Positions 1-56,429 of a stretch of 64,000 bases of DNA are shown here, one piece after another. The stretch is taken from the NCBI RefSeq assembly GCF_055900595.2, contig NZ_CM148325.1, one strand, 5' to 3'. The position numbers were made by a program, and so were the translations under genes. The notes beneath the pieces are model-generated. The model made no database searches, was not told the DNA's origin, and was given only the letters and a program-made list of their open reading frames with translations. How positions within the stretch are numbered: position 1 is the first letter of the stretch; each line of letters starts with the position of its first letter.

Positions 1-254
1 GTAGGATCGCACACCACATGCGTGGATGCCACAGCCATTGGCGTGATGTTAGCGCCAAACAGAAATGCTTCTCCATCACGTAGAAGGACGTAGCTGTCGC
101 TGATATTGGCTTTTCCTGCGCGCAGGGATTTAACCTCCCAGCCTTGCAGGGCAAGTCCCGCTTCGAACTCTTCTTCGATAAAGTATTCGTGACGGGCGCG
201 CTTGTTAAGCGCGATGGTCGCTGAACCAGGTTTATGTGCTTTTTTCTTCGTCAT
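1..254 (-). CDS. smpB: SsrA-binding protein SmpB, partial (N-terminal part only; gene runs off the window start)
   Basis: Minus-strand reading from ATG at 254-252 gives [24 protein letters not shown]..., the SmpB N-terminus; no stop before position 1. Confidence 0.85.
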
Positions 255-385
255 AAGCGTCGTGAATCATCGGTAATCTGAAATCGAAAACACCCCATAT
301 CAATCCTGCGGGGGACAAGGCTCTATCTTAGCATGAACCCGATGTTACCCAGCGCCGGGATAGCGTTTTTTTTACAGCAGGATAA

Positions 386-862
386 ATGATATTATTTGTT
401 GGATTTTTGTTGATGGAAATTGTTATGCCTCAGATTAGCCGGACCGCACTGGTACCCTACAGCGCGGAGCAAATGTATCAGTTAGTGAATGACGTTCAGT
501 CTTATCCTCAGTTTTTGCCGGGTTGTACCGGAAGTCGGATTCTGGAGTCCACTCCTGGGCAGATGACCGCGGCGGTAGATGTCTCTAAGGCTGGGATCAG
601 CAAAACGTTTACTACCCGCAACCAGTTGACCAGTAACCAAAGTATTCTTATGAATCTGGTGGATGGGCCGTTCAAGAAATTGATCGGTGGATGGAAGTTT
701 ACGCCGCTGAGCCAGGAGGCGTGTCGTATCGAGTTTCATCTCGACTTTGAGTTTACCAATAAGTTGATTGAACTCGCCTTTGGCCGCGTGTTTAAAGAGC
801 TGGCGGCTAATATGGTCCAGGCTTTTACGGTTCGTGCGAAAGAGGTTTACAGTGCCAGGTAA
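386..862 (+). CDS. ratA: Ribosome association toxin RatA (SRPBCC/polyketide cyclase-like)
   Basis: ORF track 158 aa matches RatA/YfjG; an alternative internal start (MPQISRT, ~pos 425) is possible. Confidence 0.9.
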
Positions 863-1142
863 AATTGCCGTTGAGGTGGCTTATGCTCTACCTGAGAAGC
901 AGTACCTGCAGCGCGTGACGCTGCAGGAGGGCGCGACGGTTGAAGAAGCTATTCGCACCAGTGGCTTGCTGGAATTGCGTACCGATATCGATTTAACTAA
1001 AAACAAAGTCGGCATTTACAGCCGTCCGGCAAAACTGAGCGATACCGTGCATGATGGCGATCGGGTGGAGATTTATCGTCCTCTCATTGCCGATCCGAAA
1101 GAGCTTCGCAGGCAACGAGCAGAAAAATCAGCGAATAAATAA
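852..1142 (+). CDS. ratB: RatB (YfjF), small protein downstream of ratA
   Basis: In-frame GTG at 852 gives [16 protein letters not shown]... (96 aa); overlaps ratA 3' end by 11 nt; the ORF-track 768 start is an upstream extension. Confidence 0.8.
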
Positions 1143-1203
1143 CAGACAGAAAAAAGGTGCTCATTGAGCACCTTTTTTAACGTCTTTGAGAGCAACTTTA
1201 TTA

Positions 1204-1545
1204 TTAGTTACCACTCAGCGCAGGTTTGTTATCAATGTTGGTCAACACCCCGCTACTGTTAAAGGTCAGCGTCAGCGTTTGCTGCGTTACACCTTCATGA
1301 CCTGGTTGCTGGCGGAAGACATAGAACCAGGTATTCGTACCAAATGGATCGGACATCAGCGGTGTACCCAATGCGTACGCAACTTGTTGTTGCGTCATGC
1401 CAACACGTATTTTGGATACGTCGTTAGCGGTCAGATAGTTCCCCTGGTTGATGTCAGGACGGTAAACCACTCGCTCCAGAGTGGAACAGCCTGCGGTCAA
1501 CATCAATAGTACTGCTGCTGCAGCAGTCAGCGTTTTACAGCGCAT
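1204..1545 (-). CDS. bamE: Outer membrane protein assembly factor BamE (SmpA) lipoprotein
   Basis: 113-aa ORF with lipobox (LTAGC) and BamE sequence. Confidence 0.93.
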
Positions 1546-1693
1546 AGTGATTTGATTCCTTTTCGGGCCCGAGCAGTACGTGGCTCATCTGTAATATGCC
1601 GATGATAATAGACCTTTCATCACTTTAAAACCTTTTGCTTTCCGGTCTTACGGCGTTTTGCTGTTTACTCTGACCGTGAAGCAGGAAAAAAGT

Positions 1694-3355
1694 TTACGCC
1701 GCAAGCAGTTCTTTCGCATTCGCCAGTGTGTTACGTGTGACTTCACTGCCACCAAGCAGGCGCGCCAGCTCTTGTAACCGCGCTTTTTTGTCCAGCGACT
1801 CCATATGCGTTTCTGTCATCGCACCATCGGTTTCTTTGCTGACAAAATAGTGTTGATGACCACATCCCGCGACTTGTGGCAGGTGGGTAACACACATCAC
1901 CTGAGTTGATTCGCCGAGTTGACGCAGCAGTTTGCCGACAACTGCCGCTGTTGGACCGCTAATCCCTACATCCACTTCATCAAAAATCAGTGCCGGGGTT
2001 TCCATTTTACGCGCTGTGATGACCTGAATTGCCAATGCGATGCGGGACAATTCACCACCAGATGCGACTTTGGCAATAGGCTGCATTGGCTGACCTGGGT
2101 TGGTGGTTACCCGAAACTCAATACGATCAGCGCCGTCAGCGCCCAGGTGATGCTCGTCAAATTTAACATCAATCGTAAACTGCCCATGCGGCATAGAGAG
2201 TGCATGCATACTGTCGGTGATCAGCTGTGCCAACTCATTTGCATAATGCTGGCGTTGCTGGTGTAACGCGCGCGCCGTTTCCAGTGCCTGCTGATGATGT
2301 TTCGTTACCGCCAGCGCGAGCGTTTCTTGTGAGTCGGCCTGATCGTCCAGTTGCTGCTGCTCTTCCAGTAGCGACTGGTAATACTGTGGCAATACCTCAG
2401 GGCTGACGTGATGTTTACGTGCCAGCGAAATCTGTTTTGAGATGCGCTGTTCAAGTTCAAACAGTCGGTTGGGATCGAGATCCAGACGATCGCAGTAGTG
2501 GCGCAGTTCGTCGCTGGCTTCAACAATCTGGATGGTAGCTTCTTCCAGCATATCAAGTACGCCGGACAGTTTGCTGTCCATGCCAATCAATTCGCTCACC
2601 AGTTGTTTAGCCGTGTAAAGCTGGCTTTGCAGGTTTGCGTCTTCGCCGTCGGCCATTAATGCCAATGCATTCTGGCTGGTGGTCAGTAATTGACCGCTGT
2701 TCGCCAGACGTTTGTACTCTTCGTCGATTTGCTCAAACTCTCCGGGCTGCGGATTAAATTCGTTAAGTTCTTTTAATTGGTATTGCAGCAGCTCCGCACG
2801 AGCGGCGCGTTCCTGACTTAACTGTTGATGATGAGCGAGGTCGCGGCAGCTTTGATGCCACAACTGATAACGTGCGGTCATTTCCTGAAGCAGAGAGGTT
2901 TCATTAGCATAGCCATCAAGCAGGAATTTTTGGTGCTCGGGTTTGGTGAGTAATTGATGGGCGTGCTGACCATGGATCTGAATGAGCAACTGGCCCAGTT
3001 CGCGCAGTTGTGACAGTGGAACAGCTGTACCGTTGATAAAACCACGAGAGCGACCATCGCTACTGATTACGCGACGAAGCAGGCATTCACGGCCATCTTC
3101 CAGTTGGTTTTCTTCCAGCCAGCGCAGTGCTGCGGGTGTATCTTTCAGAGAAAAACGGGCGCACAGATCTGCGCGAGCAGCTCCGGTACGCACCATGTCG
3201 GCTTCAGCGCGACCGCCGAGACAAAGGCCCAGGGCATCTATTGCAATAGATTTACCCGCGCCAGTCTCGCCGGTGATTACGGTCATGCCGCTGTGAAAAT
3301 CAATCTCAAGCTCACGAACGATAGCAAAGTTGCTGATGGTCAGTTGTGCCAACAT
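1694..3355 (-). CDS. recN: DNA repair protein RecN (SMC-like ATPase)
   Basis: 553-aa ORF, Walker A GETGAGKS at N-terminus, RecN sequence. Confidence 0.95.
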
Positions 3356-3381
3356 AGTTGTTTTCCTGTATGAAAAACCAT

Positions 3382-3423
3382 TACTGTTATTGTGTACAGT
3401 ATAAACTGGTTTTATATACAGTA
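3382..3423 (-). promoter_or_regulatory. Two tandem LexA (SOS) boxes in the recN promoter
   Basis: tactgttattgtgtacagta (3382-3401) and actggttttatatacagta (3405-3423) fit CTGT-N8-ACAG, immediately upstream of recN start. Confidence 0.8.
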
Positions 3424-17296: not shown

Positions 17297-17318
17297 AGTG
17301 TTGCCTTTTTGTTATCAA

Positions 17319-17349
17319 TAAAAAAGGCCCCCCGGTTTGGGAGGCCTTA
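17319..17349 (-). terminator. pheA attenuator terminator
   Basis: Minus-strand RNA AAGGCCTCCCAAACCGGGGGGCCTTTTTT between pheL and pheA. Confidence 0.8.
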
Positions 17350-17394
17350 TTGTTCGTCTTCGCATTCTGTTTCACACGACGAAACGCCTCCCAT

Positions 17395-17442
17395 TCAGGG
17401 GAAGGTAAAAAAGAATGCGAAGAAAAACGGTGTGTGTTTCAT
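17395..17442 (-). CDS. pheL: pheA leader peptide PheL (15 aa, Phe-rich)
   Basis: Minus-strand ATG at 17442 encodes [15 protein letters not shown]; not in ORF track because it is under 60 aa. Confidence 0.85.
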   Translation of the reverse strand: [15 protein letters not shown]

Positions 17443-17497
17443 GTTTGTTTCCTTAAGTGACTTCAGTACAGTACCCGTACTGTTTTCACGCTGTCAA

Positions 17498-18894: not shown

Positions 18895-19607
18895 AATGCG
18901 CCTGTAAGGCTCTGTTACCAGCCGCGCCCTAACAGGCGCATACGATCTGACATTTGCATTCAACTTCGTTACTTACGGCCCGTAAACGGGCTGCCCGGAT
19001 ATGGAATCGATAACTGCTCCCCCATTTTATCCTCTTCAAGCTGGTGCTTTATGTAGTCCTGTATCTTCGCCGTGTTCTTACCCACCGTATCGACATAGTA
19101 CCCTCGGCACCAGAACTCCCTGTTTCTGTATTTGAATTTCAAATCCCCAAACTGCTCGTAAAGCATCAGACTGCTTTTCCCTTTCAGATATCCCATAAAG
19201 CCGGATACGCTCATTTTGGGTGGGATTTCCACAAGCATATGGATATGATCTGCGCAGCACTCTGCTTCCAGAATCCGTACGCTTTTCCACTCACACAGCT
19301 TTCTCAAAATACTGCCTATCGCCCTACGCTTCTCTCCGTAAAACGCCAGTCTTCGGTATTTCGGCGCAAAAACTATGTGATATTTACAGTTCCAGCGGGT
19401 GTGCGCTAAGCTCTTTTCGTCCCCCATTGGGACCCCCTTTTGATTTCTTGTTTGACACTTGCAGTTGCCAGACCGCAAGGTGTTTTAACAAATCAAAAGG
19501 GGTTTTAATAACTGGCTCAAAGCTGAAAGCTTTCCGGAACCCCCAGCCTAGCTGGGGGTTTTCTGTGCACAAAAAAATCCGGAAACGAGTGAGCGTTTCC
19601 GGATTCT
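18895..19607 (-). mobile_element. IS200-like element (IS200/IS605 family), approx. 0.71 kb, boundaries +/- ~20 bp
   Basis: Contains Y1/HUH transposase tnpA, a terminator-like perfect palindrome near the left end (19577-19603), a 5'-UTR palindrome (19540-19558) and a 10-bp inverted repeat after the stop (18896-18905 / 18932-18941); extent inferred from expected IS4 leader length. Confidence 0.7.
18969..19427 (-). CDS. tnpA: IS200 transposase TnpA (Y1 HUH single-strand transposase)
   Basis: MGDEKSLAHTRWNCKYHIVFAPKYRR...HIHMLVEIPPK... 152 aa; the HxH (HIHML) motif is directly visible; ORF-track start at 19478 is an upstream extension. Confidence 0.9.
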   Translation of the reverse strand: MGDEKSLAHTRWNCKYHIVFAPKYRRLAFYGEKRRAIGSILRKLCEWKSVRILEAECCADHIHMLVEIPPKMSVSGFMGYLKGKSSLMLYEQFGDLKFKYRNREFWCRGYYVDTVGKNTAKIQDYIKHQLEEDKMGEQLSIPYPGSPFTGRK

Positions 19608-22273: not shown

Positions 22274-22334
22274 CCTAAAGAATCAAGACGATCCGGTACG
22301 CGTGATTTTCTTTTCACATTAATCTGGTCAATAA

Positions 22335-22364
22335 CCTTGAATAATTGAGGGATGACCTCATTTA
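22335..22364 (+). promoter_or_regulatory. Sigma-32 promoter of clpB
   Basis: ccttgaa (-35, 22335-22341) and cctcattta (-10, 22356-22364). Confidence 0.75.
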
Positions 22365-22402
22365 ATCTCCAGTAGCAACTTTGATCCGTTATGGGAGGAG
22401 TT

Positions 22403-24976
22403 ATGCGTCTGGATCGTCTTACTAATAAATTCCAGCTTGCTCTTGCCGATGCCCAATCACTTGCACTCGGGCACGACAACCAATTCATCGAACCACTTCA
22501 TTTAATGAGCGCCCTGCTGAATCAGGAAGGGGGTTCGGTTAGTCCTTTATTAACATCCGCCGGCATCAATGCTGGTCAGTTGCGCACAGATATCAATCAG
22601 GCATTAAATCGTTTACCGCAGGTTGAAGGCACTGGCGGCGATGTCCAGCCCTCACAGGATCTGGTGCGCGTTCTTAATCTTTGCGACAAGCTGGCGCAAA
22701 AACGTGGTGATAACTTTATCTCGTCAGAACTGTTCGTTCTGGCGGCACTTGAGTCTCGCGGCACGCTGGCCGACATCCTGAAAGCAGCAGGGGCGACCAC
22801 CGCCAACATTACTCAAGCGATTGAACAAATGCGTGGAGGTGAAAGCGTGAACGATCAAGGAGCTGAAGACCAACGTCAGGCTTTGAAAAAATACACTATC
22901 GACCTCACCGAACGAGCCGAACAAGGCAAACTCGATCCGGTGATTGGCCGTGATGAAGAAATTCGCCGTACCATTCAGGTACTGCAACGTCGTACTAAAA
23001 ATAACCCGGTGCTGATTGGTGAACCAGGCGTTGGTAAAACAGCCATCGTTGAAGGTCTGGCTCAGCGTATTATCAATGGCGAAGTGCCGGAAGGGTTGAA
23101 AGGCCGCCGCGTACTGGCGCTGGATATGGGCGCGCTGGTGGCTGGGGCGAAATATCGCGGTGAGTTTGAAGAGCGTTTAAAAGGCGTGCTTAACGATCTT
23201 GCCAAACAGGAAGGCAACGTCATCCTGTTTATCGACGAATTACATACCATGGTCGGCGCGGGTAAAGCCGATGGCGCAATGGATGCCGGCAACATGCTGA
23301 AACCGGCGCTGGCGCGTGGTGAATTGCACTGCGTAGGTGCCACGACACTGGACGAATATCGCCAGTACATCGAAAAAGATGCTGCGCTGGAACGTCGTTT
23401 CCAGAAAGTGTTTGTTGCCGAGCCAACCGTGGAAGACACCATTGCTATTCTGCGTGGCCTGAAAGAACGTTACGAACTGCACCACCATGTGCAAATTACT
23501 GACCCGGCAATTGTTGCAGCTGCGACATTATCTCATCGCTACATTGCTGACCGTCAGCTGCCGGATAAAGCCATCGACCTGATCGATGAAGCAGCATCCA
23601 GCATTCGTATGCAGATTGACTCAAAACCAGAAGAACTCGACCGACTCGATCGTCGTATCATCCAGCTCAAACTGGAACAACAGGCGTTAATGAAAGAGTC
23701 TGATGAAGCCAGTAAAAAACGCCTGGATATGCTCAACGAAGAACTGAGCGACAAAGAACGTCAGTATTCCGAGTTAGAAGAAGAGTGGAAAGCTGAGAAA
23801 GCGTCGCTTTCTGGTACGCAGACCATTAAAGCGGAACTGGAACAGGCGAAAATCGCCATTGAACAGGCTCGCCGTGTGGGTGATCTGGCGCGGATGTCTG
23901 AACTGCAATATGGCAAAATTCCAGAACTGGAAAAGCAACTGGAAGCCGCAACGCAGCTCGAAGGCAAAACTATGCGTCTCTTGCGTAATAAAGTGACCGA
24001 CGCCGAAATTGCTGAAGTGCTGGCGCGTTGGACGGGGATTCCGGTTTCTCGCATGATGGAAAGCGAGCGCGAAAAACTGCTGCGTATGGAGCAAGAGCTG
24101 CACCATCGCGTTATTGGTCAGAACGAAGCGGTTGATGCGGTATCTAACGCTATTCGTCGTAGCCGTGCGGGGCTTGCTGACCCGAATCGCCCGATTGGTT
24201 CATTCCTGTTCCTCGGCCCAACGGGTGTGGGGAAAACTGAGCTTTGTAAGGCGCTGGCGAACTTTATGTTTGATAGCGACGAGGCGATGGTCCGTATCGA
24301 TATGTCCGAGTTTATGGAGAAACACTCGGTGTCTCGTCTGGTTGGTGCGCCTCCGGGATATGTCGGTTATGAAGAAGGTGGCTACCTGACCGAAGCGGTG
24401 CGTCGTCGTCCGTATTCCGTCATCCTGCTGGATGAAGTGGAAAAAGCGCATCCGGATGTCTTCAACATTCTGTTGCAGGTACTGGATGATGGGCGTCTGA
24501 CTGACGGGCAGGGGAGAACGGTCGACTTCCGTAATACGGTTGTCATTATGACCTCTAACCTCGGTTCCGATTTGATTCAGGAACGCTTCGGTGAACTGGA
24601 TTATGCGCACATGAAAGAGCTGGTACTCGGTGTGGTAAGCCATAACTTCCGTCCGGAATTCATTAACCGTATCGATGAAGTGGTGGTCTTCCATCCGCTG
24701 GGTGAACAGCACATTGCGTCGATTGCGCAGATTCAGTTGAAACGTCTGTACAAACGTCTGGAAGAACGTGGTTATGAAATCCACATTTCTGACGAGGCGC
24801 TGAAACTGCTGAGCGAGAACGGTTACGATCCGGTCTATGGTGCACGTCCTCTGAAACGTGCTATCCAGCAGCAGATCGAAAACCCGCTGGCACAGCAAAT
24901 ACTGTCTGGTGAATTGGTTCCGGGTAAAGTTATTCGCCTGGAAGTTAATGAAGACAGGATTGTCGCCGTCCAGTAA
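22403..24976 (+). CDS. clpB: Chaperone ClpB (Hsp100 disaggregase)
   Basis: [27 protein letters not shown]... 857 aa, two AAA+ modules; ORF-track 22391 start is 4 codons upstream. Confidence 0.96.
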
Positions 24977-25417: not shown

Positions 25418-26959
<1,542 letters not shown>

Positions 26960-27044
26960 CCTTAAAGAACTGTTCTTTGCAGTGCTCACACAGATTGTCT
27001 GATAGAAAGTGAAAAGCAAGGCGTCTTGCGAAGCAGACTGATAC

Positions 27045-27120
27045 GTCCCCTTCGTCTAGAGGCCCAGGACACCGCCCTTTCACGGCGGTAACAGGGGTTC
27101 GAATCCCCTAGGGGACGCCA
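27045..27120 (+). tRNA. gltW: tRNA-Glu (UUC) in the 16S-23S spacer
   Basis: GTCCCCTTCGTCTAGAGGCCCAGGACACCGCCCTTTCACGGCGGTAACAGGGGTTCGAATCCCCTAGGGGACGCCA. Confidence 0.97.
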
Positions 27121-27314
27121 CTTGCTGGTTTGTGAGTGAAAGTCGCCGACCTTAATATCGTTAAAGATGACTTACGAGTCATGTTTAAGATATTTGCTCT
27201 TTAAAAATCTGGATCAAGCTGAAAATTGAAACACTGAACAATGAAAGTTGTTCGTGAGTCTCTCAAATTTTCGCAACACGATGATGAATCGAAAGAAACA
27301 TCTTCGGGTTGTGA

Positions 27315-30219
<2,905 letters not shown>

Positions 30220-30312
30220 ACAACGCCGAAGATGTTTTGGCGGATTGAGAGAAGATTTTCAGCCTGATACAGATTAAATCAGAACGCAGAAGCGGTCTGA
30301 TGAAACAGAATT

Positions 30313-30432
30313 TGCCTGGCGGCCTTAGCGCGGTGGTCCCACCTGACCCCATGCCGAACTCAGAAGTGAAACGCCGTAGCGCCGATGGTAGTGTGGGGTC
30401 TCCCCATGCGAGAGTAGGGAACTGCCAGGCAT
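30313..30432 (+). rRNA. rrfG: 5S ribosomal RNA
   Basis: TGCCTGGCGGC...GGAACTGCCAGGCAT, 120 nt. Confidence 0.97.
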
Positions 30433-42075: not shown

Positions 42076-42272
42076 TGCCGGGCTTAAACCCGGCACCTAA
42101 CTTGTCGACGAAGTGCGTTTTGTTCATGCCGGATGCGGCGTGAACGCCTTATCCGGCCTACAAGATCGTGCAAATTCAATATATTGCATGAGCCATGTAG
42201 GCCTGATAAGCGTAGAGCATCAGGCAGTTTTGCGTTTGCCAGCACTTTTAATTCCGGGCTTAAACCCGGAAT
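42076..42272. repeat. BIME: two inverted REP elements flanked by near-identical ccgggcttaaacccgg palindromes
   Basis: REP gccggatgcggcgtgaacgccttatccggcctac (42128-42161), inverted REP gtaggcctgataagcgtagagcatcaggc (42197-42225), palindromes at 42078-42093 and 42255-42270. Confidence 0.75.
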
Positions 42273-47753: not shown

Positions 47754-48709
47754 TGAAGCAACTTTGGTTTGCCATGTCATTAGTGACAGGTAGCCTGTTA
47801 TTCTCTGCTAACGCCTCGGCCACTCCCGCGTCCGGGGCGTTATTACAGCAGATGAACCTGGCCAGTCAGTCACTGAATTACGAGCTGTCATTCATCAGCA
47901 TCAATAAACAGGGTGTTGAGTCTCTGCGTTATCGACATGCACGCCTCGATAACCGTCCTCTTGCACAATTGTTGCAAATGGATGGCCCGCGCCGGGAAGT
48001 GGTACAGCGCGGCAATGAAATCAGCTACTTTGAACCGGGCCTTGAACCGTTCACGCTTAATGGCGATTACATTGTTGATTCTCTGCCATCGCTCATCTAT
48101 ACCGATTTCAAACGCCTTTCTCCTTACTACGACTTTATCTCCGTGGGACGCACGCGTATTGCTGATCGTCTTTGCGAAGTCATTCGCGTGGTGGCCCGTG
48201 ATGGCACACGCTACAGCTACATCGTGTGGATGGACACCGAATCGAAATTACCGATGCGGGTTGATCTCCTTGATCGCGATGGTGAAACGCTGGAACAATT
48301 TCGCGTGATTGCTTTTAACGTTAATCAGGATATCAGCAGCAGTATGCAGACGCTGGCGAAAGCAAATCTGCCGCCGCTGCTTTCTGTTCCTGTAGGTGAA
48401 AAAGCTAAATTCAGCTGGACGCCAACCTGGTTGCCACAGGGGTTTAGTGAAGTTTCCAGCAGCCGACGTCCGTTACCGACGATGGACAACATGCCTATCG
48501 AATCACGTCTCTATTCCGACGGATTATTCAGCTTCTCGGTAAACGTTAACCGCGCTACGCCATCGAGCACCGATCAGATGTTGCGCACCGGACGCAGAAC
48601 CGTCAGTACAAGCGTACGTGATAACGCCGAAATCACCATTGTCGGCGAACTGCCGCCGCAAACGGCGAAACGCATTGCCGAGAATATTAAGTTCGGGGCA
48701 GCGCAATGA
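47753..48709 (+). CDS. rseB: Sigma-E regulatory protein RseB
   Basis: 318 aa with signal peptide. Confidence 0.95.
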   Translation: MKQLWFAMSLVTGSLLFSANASATPASGALLQQMNLASQSLNYELSFISINKQGVESLRYRHARLDNRPLAQLLQMDGPRREVVQRGNEISYFEPGLEPFTLNGDYIVDSLPSLIYTDFKRLSPYYDFISVGRTRIADRLCEVIRVVARDGTRYSYIVWMDTESKLPMRVDLLDRDGETLEQFRVIAFNVNQDISSSMQTLAKANLPPLLSVPVGEKAKFSWTPTWLPQGFSEVSSSRRPLPTMDNMPIESRLYSDGLFSFSVNVNRATPSSTDQMLRTGRRTVSTSVRDNAEITIVGELPPQTAKRIAENIKFGAAQ

Positions 48710-49185
48710 TCAAAGAGTGGGCTACGGTCGTCTCCTGGCAAAACGGGCAGGCGCTGGTCAGTTGTGATGTTAAAGCCTCATGCAGCAGCTGTGCTTCCCG
48801 TGTCGGTTGCGGTAGCCGCGTGCTGAATAAACTTGGCCCACAAACCACGCATACCATTGTCGTACCCTGTGATGAACCGTTAGTACCGGGGCAAAAAGTG
48901 GAATTAGGAATCACCGAAGGCAGCCTGCTTAGCTCCGCATTACTGGTTTATATGTCGCCGTTGGTGGGATTATTCCTCATCGCTTCGTTATTTCAGCTAC
49001 TCTTTGCTTCAGATCTTGCAGCATTATGCGGTGCGATTCTCGGCGGCGTTGGTGGATTCCTGATTGCACGCAGCTACTCGCGAAAGTTTGCTGCCCGGGC
49101 AGAATGGCAACCGATCATCTTAAGCGTGGCATTGCCGCCAGGCCTTGTGCGATTTGAAACATCTTCGGAAGACGCGAGCCAGTGA
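48706..49185 (+). CDS. rseC: Sigma-E regulatory protein RseC
   Basis: 159 aa membrane protein; overlaps rseB stop by 4 nt. Confidence 0.93.
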   Translation: MIKEWATVVSWQNGQALVSCDVKASCSSCASRVGCGSRVLNKLGPQTTHTIVVPCDEPLVPGQKVELGITEGSLLSSALLVYMSPLVGLFLIASLFQLLFASDLAALCGAILGGVGGFLIARSYSRKFAARAEWQPIILSVALPPGLVRFETSSEDASQ

Positions 49186-49382
49186 TTTCACTGGCTTTGT
49201 TGCATTTTGCATAACAAATGCGAGGACGTTTCCAGATACCACAATCCATACCGTATGAACATTTCCTCGCCTCAATGTTGTAGTGTAGAATGCGGCGTTT
49301 CTATTAATACAGACGTTAAGCTCAGAACAGCGACTTCTAAAAGCCTGGTTAACCGGGCATTAAGGCACAATAATCATACTTT

Positions 49383-51182
<1,800 letters not shown>

Positions 51183-52172: not shown

Positions 52173-52318
52173 TAGCTTATCTTCGTTCACGTTGTCGCCG
52201 TTATGGCGACAACGTGAATTATTTATGAGATAAATCCCCCGTGGCTAACGACATCCCCCGTCGTTGTGTATAGAATATTCCCCCGAAGTTTAAGGTTGGC
52301 ACCTCCAGGTTGCCACGG

Positions 52319-52410
52319 CACACGAAACAGCGTTGGTCCCCATATACCGGTAAACTGAAACTGCAGCGAAGCAGTTAGCAGAGCCATGTATATCAGGTCT
52401 GTTTCGTGTG
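52319..52410 (+). promoter_or_regulatory. rnc leader long stem (RNase III autoregulatory processing structure)
   Basis: 12-bp perfect inverted repeat cacacgaaacag (52319-52330) / ctgtttcgtgtg (52399-52410) in the 5' UTR of rnc. Confidence 0.65.
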
Positions 52411-52414
52411 CTGA

Positions 52415-54027
<1,613 letters not shown>

Positions 54028-56029: not shown

Positions 56030-56072
56030 AAAAGTAAAACCCCCGAACTGGTAAGGAACGGGGGTTTTACTT
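56030..56072. terminator. Terminator hairpin downstream of acpS
   Basis: aaaacccccgaactggtaaggaacgggggtttt flanked by A/T runs. Confidence 0.7.
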
Positions 56073-56429
56073 TACAACTTTAATTTTGTGCAGCACACGA
56101 TTCCAACAAAAATGATTATGGATCAATTTAGTTATCCTGTACAAGCAACTTGCAATCTTTAGCATAAAAACTCGAGCCTTTACGAAGAAATCGATATTGA
56201 TGAAAAGATTAACGTGACCGCTTTTTGATAAGTACATTAGAATCGGCGTCGTTATTGGATATTTTGCTGTGTTCTACGCCATGCCACTGAATTCCCCCAT
56301 TGAAACGAGTGGTGTCGTCAAAGCTCTGGTGTGGAGTGCGGCACTCGATTCCAATAACTCGCACGTTCAGTTTTGGGGAGATGTAAGGGCTAATCTGAAC
56401 GGCTGCATTCCTTGTTTAAGGAAAAACGA

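Follow-up and report, generated by a model that had tools for sequence, protein, structure and literature searches.

The ratA-ratB gene pair of Escherichia coli (synonyms pasT-pasI and yfjG-yfjF), found at positions 386 to 1,142 of the 64,000-nucleotide (nt) stretch analysed here (NCBI RefSeq assembly GCF_055900595.2, contig NZ_CM148325.1; the whole stretch is referred to as the window), has its closest described counterparts in strain K-12 and in uropathogenic E. coli (UPEC). Fasnacht, Schratt & Moll (Int J Mol Sci 2025; PMC11988751) addressed exactly the start ambiguity of ratA. Overexpression of the open reading frame (ORF) as annotated yielded two proteins, assigned by intact-mass mass spectrometry to residues 1-166 and 15-166 of RatA-Strep and thus to starts at Met1 and Met14, and growth arrest was caused by the long form only, with the M14I substitution leaving the toxic form and M1S the harmless one. 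The native promoter gave rise to the short form alone, and here M14I abolished both protein and complementation, which M1S did not. The same study located a sigma-70 -10 box inside the annotated ORF and mapped the 5' end of ratA downstream of both this box and Met1 by primer extension and transcriptome data (two data sets; differential RNA sequencing). Mutation of the box (primer IM_M86, ATATTA to ATCCTT) abolished ratA mRNA and protein, M1S (ATG to AGC) lowered the mRNA, and the 158-residue RatA was described as a toxic overexpression artefact. Regarding function, Fino et al. (2020; PMC7424257) described PasT as a Coq10 homologue and not a toxin, and a follow-up preprint (bioRxiv 10.64898/2026.05.04.722385) presents RatA as a ubiquinone shuttle, for which the name UbiM is proposed; between them, these works report ubiquinone binding and support of aerobic respiration.

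The window carries this same locus. Its gene identities, as proposed by an initial annotation made from the DNA letters, are borne out by sequence match, Pfam profiles and RefSeq annotation, and the coordinates given there are exact (ORF 386-862 of 158 amino acids (aa), ratA stop TAA at 860-862, ratB ending at 1142 after 96 aa). The stretch from 250 to 1250 is 100% identical to E. coli 2013C-4282; of 5426 complete E. coli genomes, 5425 carry it once. The window matches K-12 MG1655 without difference over 136-567, that is, over the entire smpB-ratA intergenic region, the 13 disputed codons and the start of ratA. The 145-aa RatA is likewise identical in the window and K-12, and RatB differs at two residues. 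We consider it very probable that this is a housekeeping ratAB operon in which RatA is translated from ATG 425 and RatB from GTG 852, and in which the 13 codons upstream of 425 are promoter and leader DNA. The genes and the disputed segment are as follows.

425-862, + strand: ratA (pasT, yfjG; proposed name ubiM) coding sequence, 145 aa, START/SRPBCC Coq10-like protein; coding sequence WP_001300750.1 of the RefSeq Prokaryotic Genome Annotation Pipeline (PGAP)
852-1142, + strand: ratB (pasI, yfjF) coding sequence, 96 aa, GTG start, RnfH-family ubiquitin-like protein
386-424, + strand: 13 "codons" of the long annotation, non-coding, made up of -10 element, transcription start and 5' leader of ratA

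Codon Conservation in ratA Begins at ATG 425

The ratA ORF contains three in-frame ATG codons, at 386, 413 and 425 (Met1, Met10 and Met14 of the long form); the initial annotation was right that the start is ambiguous but counted only two candidates. It had also called the 13 residues encoded upstream of 425 hydrophobic, in agreement with a grand average of hydropathy of 2.64 for the extension as compared with -0.10 for the other 145 residues, and had named conservation of these codons across Enterobacteriaceae as a means of choosing between starts. We compared the locus in 80 species-representative genomes, the best 80 of 515 confirmed matches, all from Enterobacteriaceae, with column entropies calculated over 67 distinct sequences. 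Downstream of 425 the mean entropy is 0.21, 0.05 and 1.13 bits at codon positions 1, 2 and 3, which is the classic pattern of codons; between the -10 element and 425 it is 0.88, 1.12 and 0.88 bits, with no 3-nt periodicity. The codon periodicity of ratA begins exactly at 425, and the mean amino-acid identity to the window rises from 52% over the 13 upstream codons to 98.7% over the 13 that follow.

The frame itself is poorly kept upstream. An ATG triplet stands at the position of 386 in all 80 species, yet in 26 of them it is unusable, being out of frame with Met14 in 12 and separated from it by an in-frame stop in 14 (Citrobacter werkmanii, C. braakii and C. portucalensis, Salmonella enterica arizonae and Kluyvera ascorbata are among the broken cases). 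The 12 upstream codons are stop-free in the ratA frame in 57 of the 80 species and in the -1 frame in 63, so that nothing keeps the ratA frame open. Base composition accounts for the hydrophobic translation: the 39-nt extension is 54% T and 23% GC, as against 50% GC in the coding sequence, and carries T at 11 of 13 second codon positions, where T encodes Phe, Leu, Ile, Val or Met, such that T-rich promoter and leader DNA reads as a hydrophobic peptide. Furthermore, the NCBIfam RatA equivalog NF007999 (144 positions) aligns over its positions 1-144 with long-form residues 14-157, and residue 7 of the chain in PDB entry 1T17, the 148-aa Caulobacter homologue, aligns with long-form residue 20, leaving the extension with no counterpart. 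The comparison proposed in the initial annotation thus returned broken frames, a lack of periodicity and low identity in place of coding conservation, and these alignments show that the 13 upstream codons of ratA are non-coding regulatory DNA.

A Conserved Extended -10 Element Takes in ATG 386

Three blocks are conserved upstream of ratA, namely a T-run at 367-373, the sequence GATAAATGnTAttATTT at 381-397 and GGAAA at 415-419, and from these blocks together with the published mutant primers we identified the ratA promoter and leader elements.

367-373, + strand: T-run at the ratA promoter's -35 position, entropy 0-0.7 bits as compared with 1.2-1.9 bits in the flanks
387-395, + strand: TGaTATTAT, extended -10 element in the sigma-70 promoter of ratA, TGnTAnnAT kept in 80 of 80 species
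401-403, + strand: probable ratA transcription start, placed by promoter geometry 6-8 nt after the -10 hexamer
415-419, + strand: weak candidate Shine-Dalgarno (SD) sequence GGAAA for ATG 425, spacer 5-7 nt, conserved with entropy 0.19-0.61 bits

The -10 hexamer is TATTAT in 63 species, TACTAT in 12, TACAAT in three and TAGTAT in two, so that variation is confined to positions 3 and 4, the two least critical ones, while the TG and positions 1, 2, 5 and 6 are kept. The invariance of ATG 386 is explained by its TG being that of the extended -10 element. Placed on the window from the published primer table, the -10 mutation falls at 389-394 and turns TATTAT (390-395) into TCCTTT, and M1S destroys the TG at 387-388 (both after PMC11988751); both mutants fit the extended -10 element that conservation yields independently. 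The T-run is a poor match to TTGACA and is possibly a -35 region, an UP-like element or a spacer.

By these elements and the published mutants, ratAB is transcribed from the sigma-70 extended -10 promoter at 387-395, divergently from smpB, as an mRNA that probably starts near 402, about 20-25 nt ahead of ATG 425. As the -10 element contains ATG 386, this mRNA is made without that ATG. Translation then starts at ATG 425, probably aided by GGAAA 415-419, which we take to be the ratA SD, and gives a soluble START-domain protein of 145 aa, homologous to Coq10 and reported as a ubiquinone carrier. The hydrophobic extension is made, and makes the protein toxic, only when the long ORF sits behind a foreign promoter and ribosome-binding site. 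The start-codon mutants, the promoter mutants and primer extension agree on Met14 (ATG 425) as the sole start used in vivo, by which the 145-aa RatA has been shown to be the only natural ratA product, and the ambiguity that the initial annotation had left to ribosome profiling or N-terminal proteomics is no longer open. Ribosome-profiling data on start sites that mention ratA were sought in the literature and not found.

Several observations pull in the other direction. A sigma-70 consensus scan did not flag the + strand ratA promoter, which we attribute to its poor -35 region. The members of the comparative set are phylogenetically non-independent, and the ORF from 386 is open in 54 of the 80 species. 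SD strength taken alone gives no advantage to ATG 425, whose duplex with the anti-SD (GGAAA, 415-419) is calculated at -3.3 kcal/mol as compared with -4.1 kcal/mol for ATG 386, although the latter has a spacer of only 2-3 nt; as these energies do not separate the ratA starts, SD strength was dropped as a discriminator. The K-12 reference record (NC_000913.3, 2754288-2754764) keeps a 158-aa ratA labelled 'ribosome association toxin RatA', and PGAP-annotated genomes (NZ_CP027579.1, NZ_CP006834.2) carry the 145-aa coding sequence under the name 'type II toxin-antitoxin system toxin RatA'; the K-12 start and the product names lag behind the literature of 2020-2026. Finally, the authors of PMC11988751 do not exclude an alternative upstream promoter acting under other conditions.

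It is on this last point that a second reading depends, in which the 158-aa RatA from ATG 386 is a genuine conditional isoform, membrane-targeted or toxic and expressed from an upstream promoter. Besides the universal ATG and the majority of open frames, it can call on an AGGA just upstream of 386, on a signal peptide predicted by SignalP (PMC11988751) and on a literature report that rescue of ciprofloxacin persisters requires full-length pasT. The TG of the extended -10 element, however, accounts for the conserved ATG, the frame is no more open than another one and shows no coding periodicity, the spacer of the SD is only 2-3 nt long, and our promoter scan gave no + strand promoter-like site upstream of 386. 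The long form also went undetected across growth phases and under anaerobiosis, starvation, oxidative and antibiotic stress, including in the CFT073 background (PMC11988751 and bioRxiv 10.64898/2026.05.04.722385; the preprint covers starvation, the two stresses and CFT073). We therefore regard a conditional long isoform as very unlikely. The alignments do not allow a long RatA to be conserved across the family as a whole, and its narrower version, an isoform restricted to Escherichia and some relatives that would serve as a membrane tether for a ubiquinone carrier or as a stress toxin, seems to us very improbable.

A start at the middle codon, ATG 413 (Met10), would give a protein of 149 aa beginning MEIVMPQ. 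This codon would probably lie within the mRNA if transcription starts near 402, and an ATG is present there in many species. Apart from a marginal GGA (-3.1 kcal/mol) 8 nt ahead of it, this codon nonetheless lacks an SD; it would lie some 11 nt from the transcript's 5' end, and its AT is not conserved, with GTG, CAG, GCA and GCG among the variants. As reported in PMC11988751, moreover, the M14I mutant makes no detectable protein at all and the intact mass of the short form corresponds to residues 15-166. There is next to no chance, in our estimate, that RatA starts at 413, and ATG 425 is retained as its start.

RNA folding showed the ratA leader (400-470) to be no more structured than shuffled sequences (z = +0.36). 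Upstream, a weak terminator-like hairpin, AGCGCCGGGATAGCG (351-367, + strand), is followed by a T8 run, with no + strand gene ahead of it; over 351-373 the T-run is highly conserved among the 67 distinct sequences and the hairpin stem is not.

On the minus strand, two sigma-70-like sites point towards smpB, TTTCCA-17-AATAAT (419->391) and TCAACA-16-TATCAT (413->386). These sites coincide in part with the near-palindromic -10 block of ratA (ATGATATTAT) and with the conserved GGAAA, and no other promoter-like sites were found upstream of smpB within the intergenic region. The ratA promoter alone leaves the conserved GATAAA (381-386) unexplained, and the -10 block may be a bidirectional promoter common to ratAB and smpB, its two -10 elements being displaced from each other by 1 nt.

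ratB Initiates at a GTG Within the Last Codons of ratA

The downstream gene begins inside the first one, and the elements of this junction are placed as follows.

839-845, + strand: ratB SD AAAGAGG, 6 nt ahead of the GTG and within the ratA codons Lys-Glu-Val
852-862, + strand: ratA/ratB overlap of 11 nt, from the GTG of ratB to the TAA of ratA

The location of GTG 852-854 inside ratA and the overlap of 11 nt agree with the initial annotation. Its further claim, that ratB can start nowhere else, is correct as to the codon used and too strong as to the choice available, since the frame, which contains no in-frame ATG, also holds TTG 768, TTG 780, GTG 834 and GTG 876. Only 852 joins a good SD, conservation and a complete RnfH domain (the Pfam match begins at residue 5). 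The alternatives at 834, 768/780 and 876 were rejected, each being absent in many species and having a poor SD, and a start at 876 would in addition truncate the domain. The calculated anti-SD duplex for 852, at -6.5 kcal/mol, is the best of all candidate starts and lies within the top 8% or so of random 20-mers from the window. K-12 and PGAP both annotate ratB from this codon, and the pasI clone of Fino et al. carried its 'original GTG start codon' (PMC7424257). RatB is accordingly read from GTG 852 by way of an SD embedded in ratA codons.

Conservation of the junction was followed in 81 sequences. The start codon is GTG in 78, the remaining three using a GTG two codons upstream, and all 81 have 11 nt between the canonical start position and the end of the ratA stop, which is TAA in 65, TGA in 15 and TAG in one. 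The Glu codon of ratA that forms part of the SD is GAG throughout (81/81), compared with 58.5% GAG at the other Glu codons of ratA, and the GTG takes its G from a ratA codon that reads AGT (Ser) in 68 sequences and CGT (Arg) in 13, a change of residue in which the GT is kept. The invariant GAG and the retained GT show selection acting on the initiation signals of ratB and not on the C-terminus of RatA.

Variants of the junction occur in one clade. A duplication of 6 nt (AGTGTC) in Citrobacter (loci L006-L010 and L013-L015, locus coordinates about 1925-1945) gives two in-frame GTGs, of which the canonical one has turned into GCG in C. werkmanii, C. portucalensis and C. braakii. In these three species ratB must consequently start two codons earlier, with an overlap of 17 nt and a product of 98 aa, and the Citrobacter RatB proteins in the database are indeed 98 aa long and begin MSASAK, as annotated in P0049. 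The best 120 matches of a RatB protein search all come from Enterobacteriaceae. Three longer RatB-like proteins, P0004 (163 aa), P0007 (149 aa) and P0015 (125 aa), were considered as evidence of other starts and rejected: they are RatA-RatB frame fusions that join the C-terminal part of RatA to RatB through short insertions or deletions located in the overlap or ahead of it (for example ...AKEVYSAGKIAVEV) and are probably assembly or sequencing errors, because each stands on a single short contig.

Possible Translational Coupling of ratB to ratA

The initial annotation took the overlap to imply translational coupling, which we find plausible and put somewhere from about even to moderately likely. 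The geometry is present, in that the genes overlap on the same strand and the start and SD of ratB lie within ratA in conserved fashion across species, and this geometry together with its strict conservation favours coupling. Ribosomes ending ratA at 860-862 would re-initiate at 852, alongside de novo initiation at the same codon. Two results weigh against it. The fold of the junction RNA (800-900) shows no structure beyond that of shuffled sequences (z = +1.40), and a version of coupling where ribosomes open a structure was dropped on that account. Moreover, although ratB expression falls steeply in a ratA deletion (log2 fold change -6.75), loss of the promoter explains this equally well, and polarity may also do so.

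Alternatively, ratB could be translated independently from its own strong SD, the 11-nt overlap then reflecting compact packing with no functional coupling. Its SD is the strongest among the candidate sites and is kept at a synonymous position, and with no stable structure masking the initiation region, melting by ratA ribosomes would be unneeded. Same-strand overlaps of 11 nt are commonplace between bacterial genes and statistically unremarkable. What speaks for coupling, on the other hand, is that the overlap is fixed in length in all 81 sequences while nearby residues change, that a stop 6 nt past an SD-bearing start is a generally efficient geometry for termination-reinitiation, that GTG is a weaker initiator and is often aided by coupling, and that ratB expression collapses upon ratA deletion, albeit ambiguously. 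Independent translation is thus a reasonable possibility that falls short of an even chance, and coupling of ratB to ratA, with de novo initiation beside it, is the reading that we carry forward.

Protein Families and the Toxin-Antitoxin Label

By profile and structure-sequence matches RatA belongs to the Coq10/PasT branch of the START-SRPBCC family, whose bacterial members are single-domain proteins of about 145-150 aa beginning at the START domain: it matches PF03364 with E=1.3e-38 and 132.5 bits (cut-off 23.4), the equivalog NF007999 with 304.8 bits (cut-off 258), and 1T17 with E=2e-19 over nearly its full length. RatB is similarly assigned to the RnfH family by its match to PF03658 (E=3.7e-35, 120.5 bits), in which residues 5-87 cover profile positions 1-83 of 83, and to NF002490 (154.3 bits, cut-off 75); among solved structures it resembles 2HJ1 (E=3.1e-28) and the RnfH chain 8AHX_H (E=1.4e-13), in both cases by sequence similarity only. 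Its K-12 label, 'putative component of the Rsx system', is a label only, and RatB protein has not been detected experimentally in the literature.

The names in use describe something else, a bona fide type II toxin-antitoxin module with RatA as a toxin binding the 50S ribosomal subunit and RatB as its antitoxin. The K-12 and PGAP names and the NCBIfam model name 'RatA family toxin' express this reading, which also draws on the growth arrest caused by the overexpressed annotated ORF (PMC11988751) and on one study where pasI co-expression relieved toxicity in liquid culture. That toxicity, however, requires the artefactual 13-residue extension, which has no conserved coding sequence and whose frame is broken in 26 of 80 species; native RatA is non-toxic and supports respiration according to the literature; and the original study saw neither a RatA-RatB complex nor neutralisation, with ratB deletion being viable. 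The locus is furthermore a single-copy, syntenic core locus in E. coli (5425 of 5426 genomes) and in the 80 species, which fits a housekeeping gene rather than a mobile toxin-antitoxin module. We give the toxin-antitoxin reading very little credence. The statement of the initial annotation that start choice alters the N-terminus of a toxin is hence correct in so far as the start alters what the protein does, toxicity being confined to the 158-aa form, and mistaken in that native RatA is no toxin, and the evidence returns us to a housekeeping ratAB operon.

Neighbourhood and Other Features of the Window

In all 80 species examined ratB follows ratA. The surrounding genes were viewed over positions 1-3400 of the window.

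Ending near 254, - strand: smpB, divergent to ratAB
1150-1178, both strands: symmetric hairpin A6-GGTGCTC-ATT-GAGCACC-T6, 8 nt past the ratB stop
1204-1545, - strand: bamE, convergent with ratB
1694-3355, - strand: recN

The hairpin was returned by the terminator scan in its - strand reading, and its + strand reading, with the T6, was taken directly from the sequence. It is likely a bidirectional intrinsic terminator common to ratAB (+ strand) and bamE (- strand), and would mark the end of the operon.

Elsewhere in the window the following RNA features, all known from E. coli, are found.

17318-17443, - strand: pheL leader
19437-19560, - strand: STnc490
22284-22422, + strand: RyfD
25418-30430: complete rrn operon, with 16S at 25418-26959, tRNA-Glu at 27045-27120, 23S at 27315-30219 and 5S at 30315-30430
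42162-42204: ES036
48670-49501, - strand: AsrC, antisense of rseC
52285-52499: rncO
56031-56107, - strand: ohsC antitoxin small RNA

Comparison with Known Systems

The start ambiguity, its consequence for toxicity and the GTG overlap are all already published, present in the current RefSeq annotation, or both, and the locus matters mainly for annotation hygiene, as the K-12 record and the product names carry a start and a function that have been overturned. Two traps are illustrated by it: a promoter element can keep a spurious start codon perfectly conserved, and T-rich promoter DNA can translate into a hydrophobic, signal-peptide-like peptide.

In comparison with RatA-delta14 of K-12 and PasT of UPEC (PMC11988751 and PMC7424257), the gene in the window is the same one, with three ATGs, an internal -10 box and use of Met14, and there is no biological difference. 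What the present analysis adds to the work of Fasnacht et al., as far as that article was available, is a cross-species test, in which the extended -10 element is kept in 80 of 80 species and the upstream frame is broken in 26 of 80. Within the wider family, Coq10 and the Caulobacter protein CC1736 (1T17) share PF03364 with RatA, and the bacterial members are about 145-148 aa long and lack an N-terminal extension. Mitochondrial Coq10 does have an N-terminal targeting peptide, whereas the apparent extension of E. coli RatA is an artefact of annotation. RatB for its part matches the whole profile of RnfH, represented by chain H of the Azotobacter Rnf complex (8AHX) and by the Haemophilus influenzae protein 2HJ1, and differs from the RnfH genes of rnf/rsx operons in being encoded beside ratA.

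The long ratA annotation also belongs with the known class of starts placed upstream of the real transcription start by the longest-ORF rule of early annotation, K-12 having kept the longest ORF with the transcription start internal to it. Unlike other upstream starts annotated in error, the spurious start codon of ratA is itself part of the promoter; it is for this reason perfectly conserved, and hence misleading. The ratA-ratB junction, finally, resembles the pairs of genes coupled by termination-reinitiation, of which the junctions of the trp operon are classic cases. As in such pairs, the predicted start and SD of ratB lie inside the upstream ORF, whose stop comes a few nt past that start, while the overlap of 11 nt at a GTG sets ratAB apart from the ATGA and TGATG arrangements, with overlaps of 4 or 1 nt, that are common among coupled pairs.

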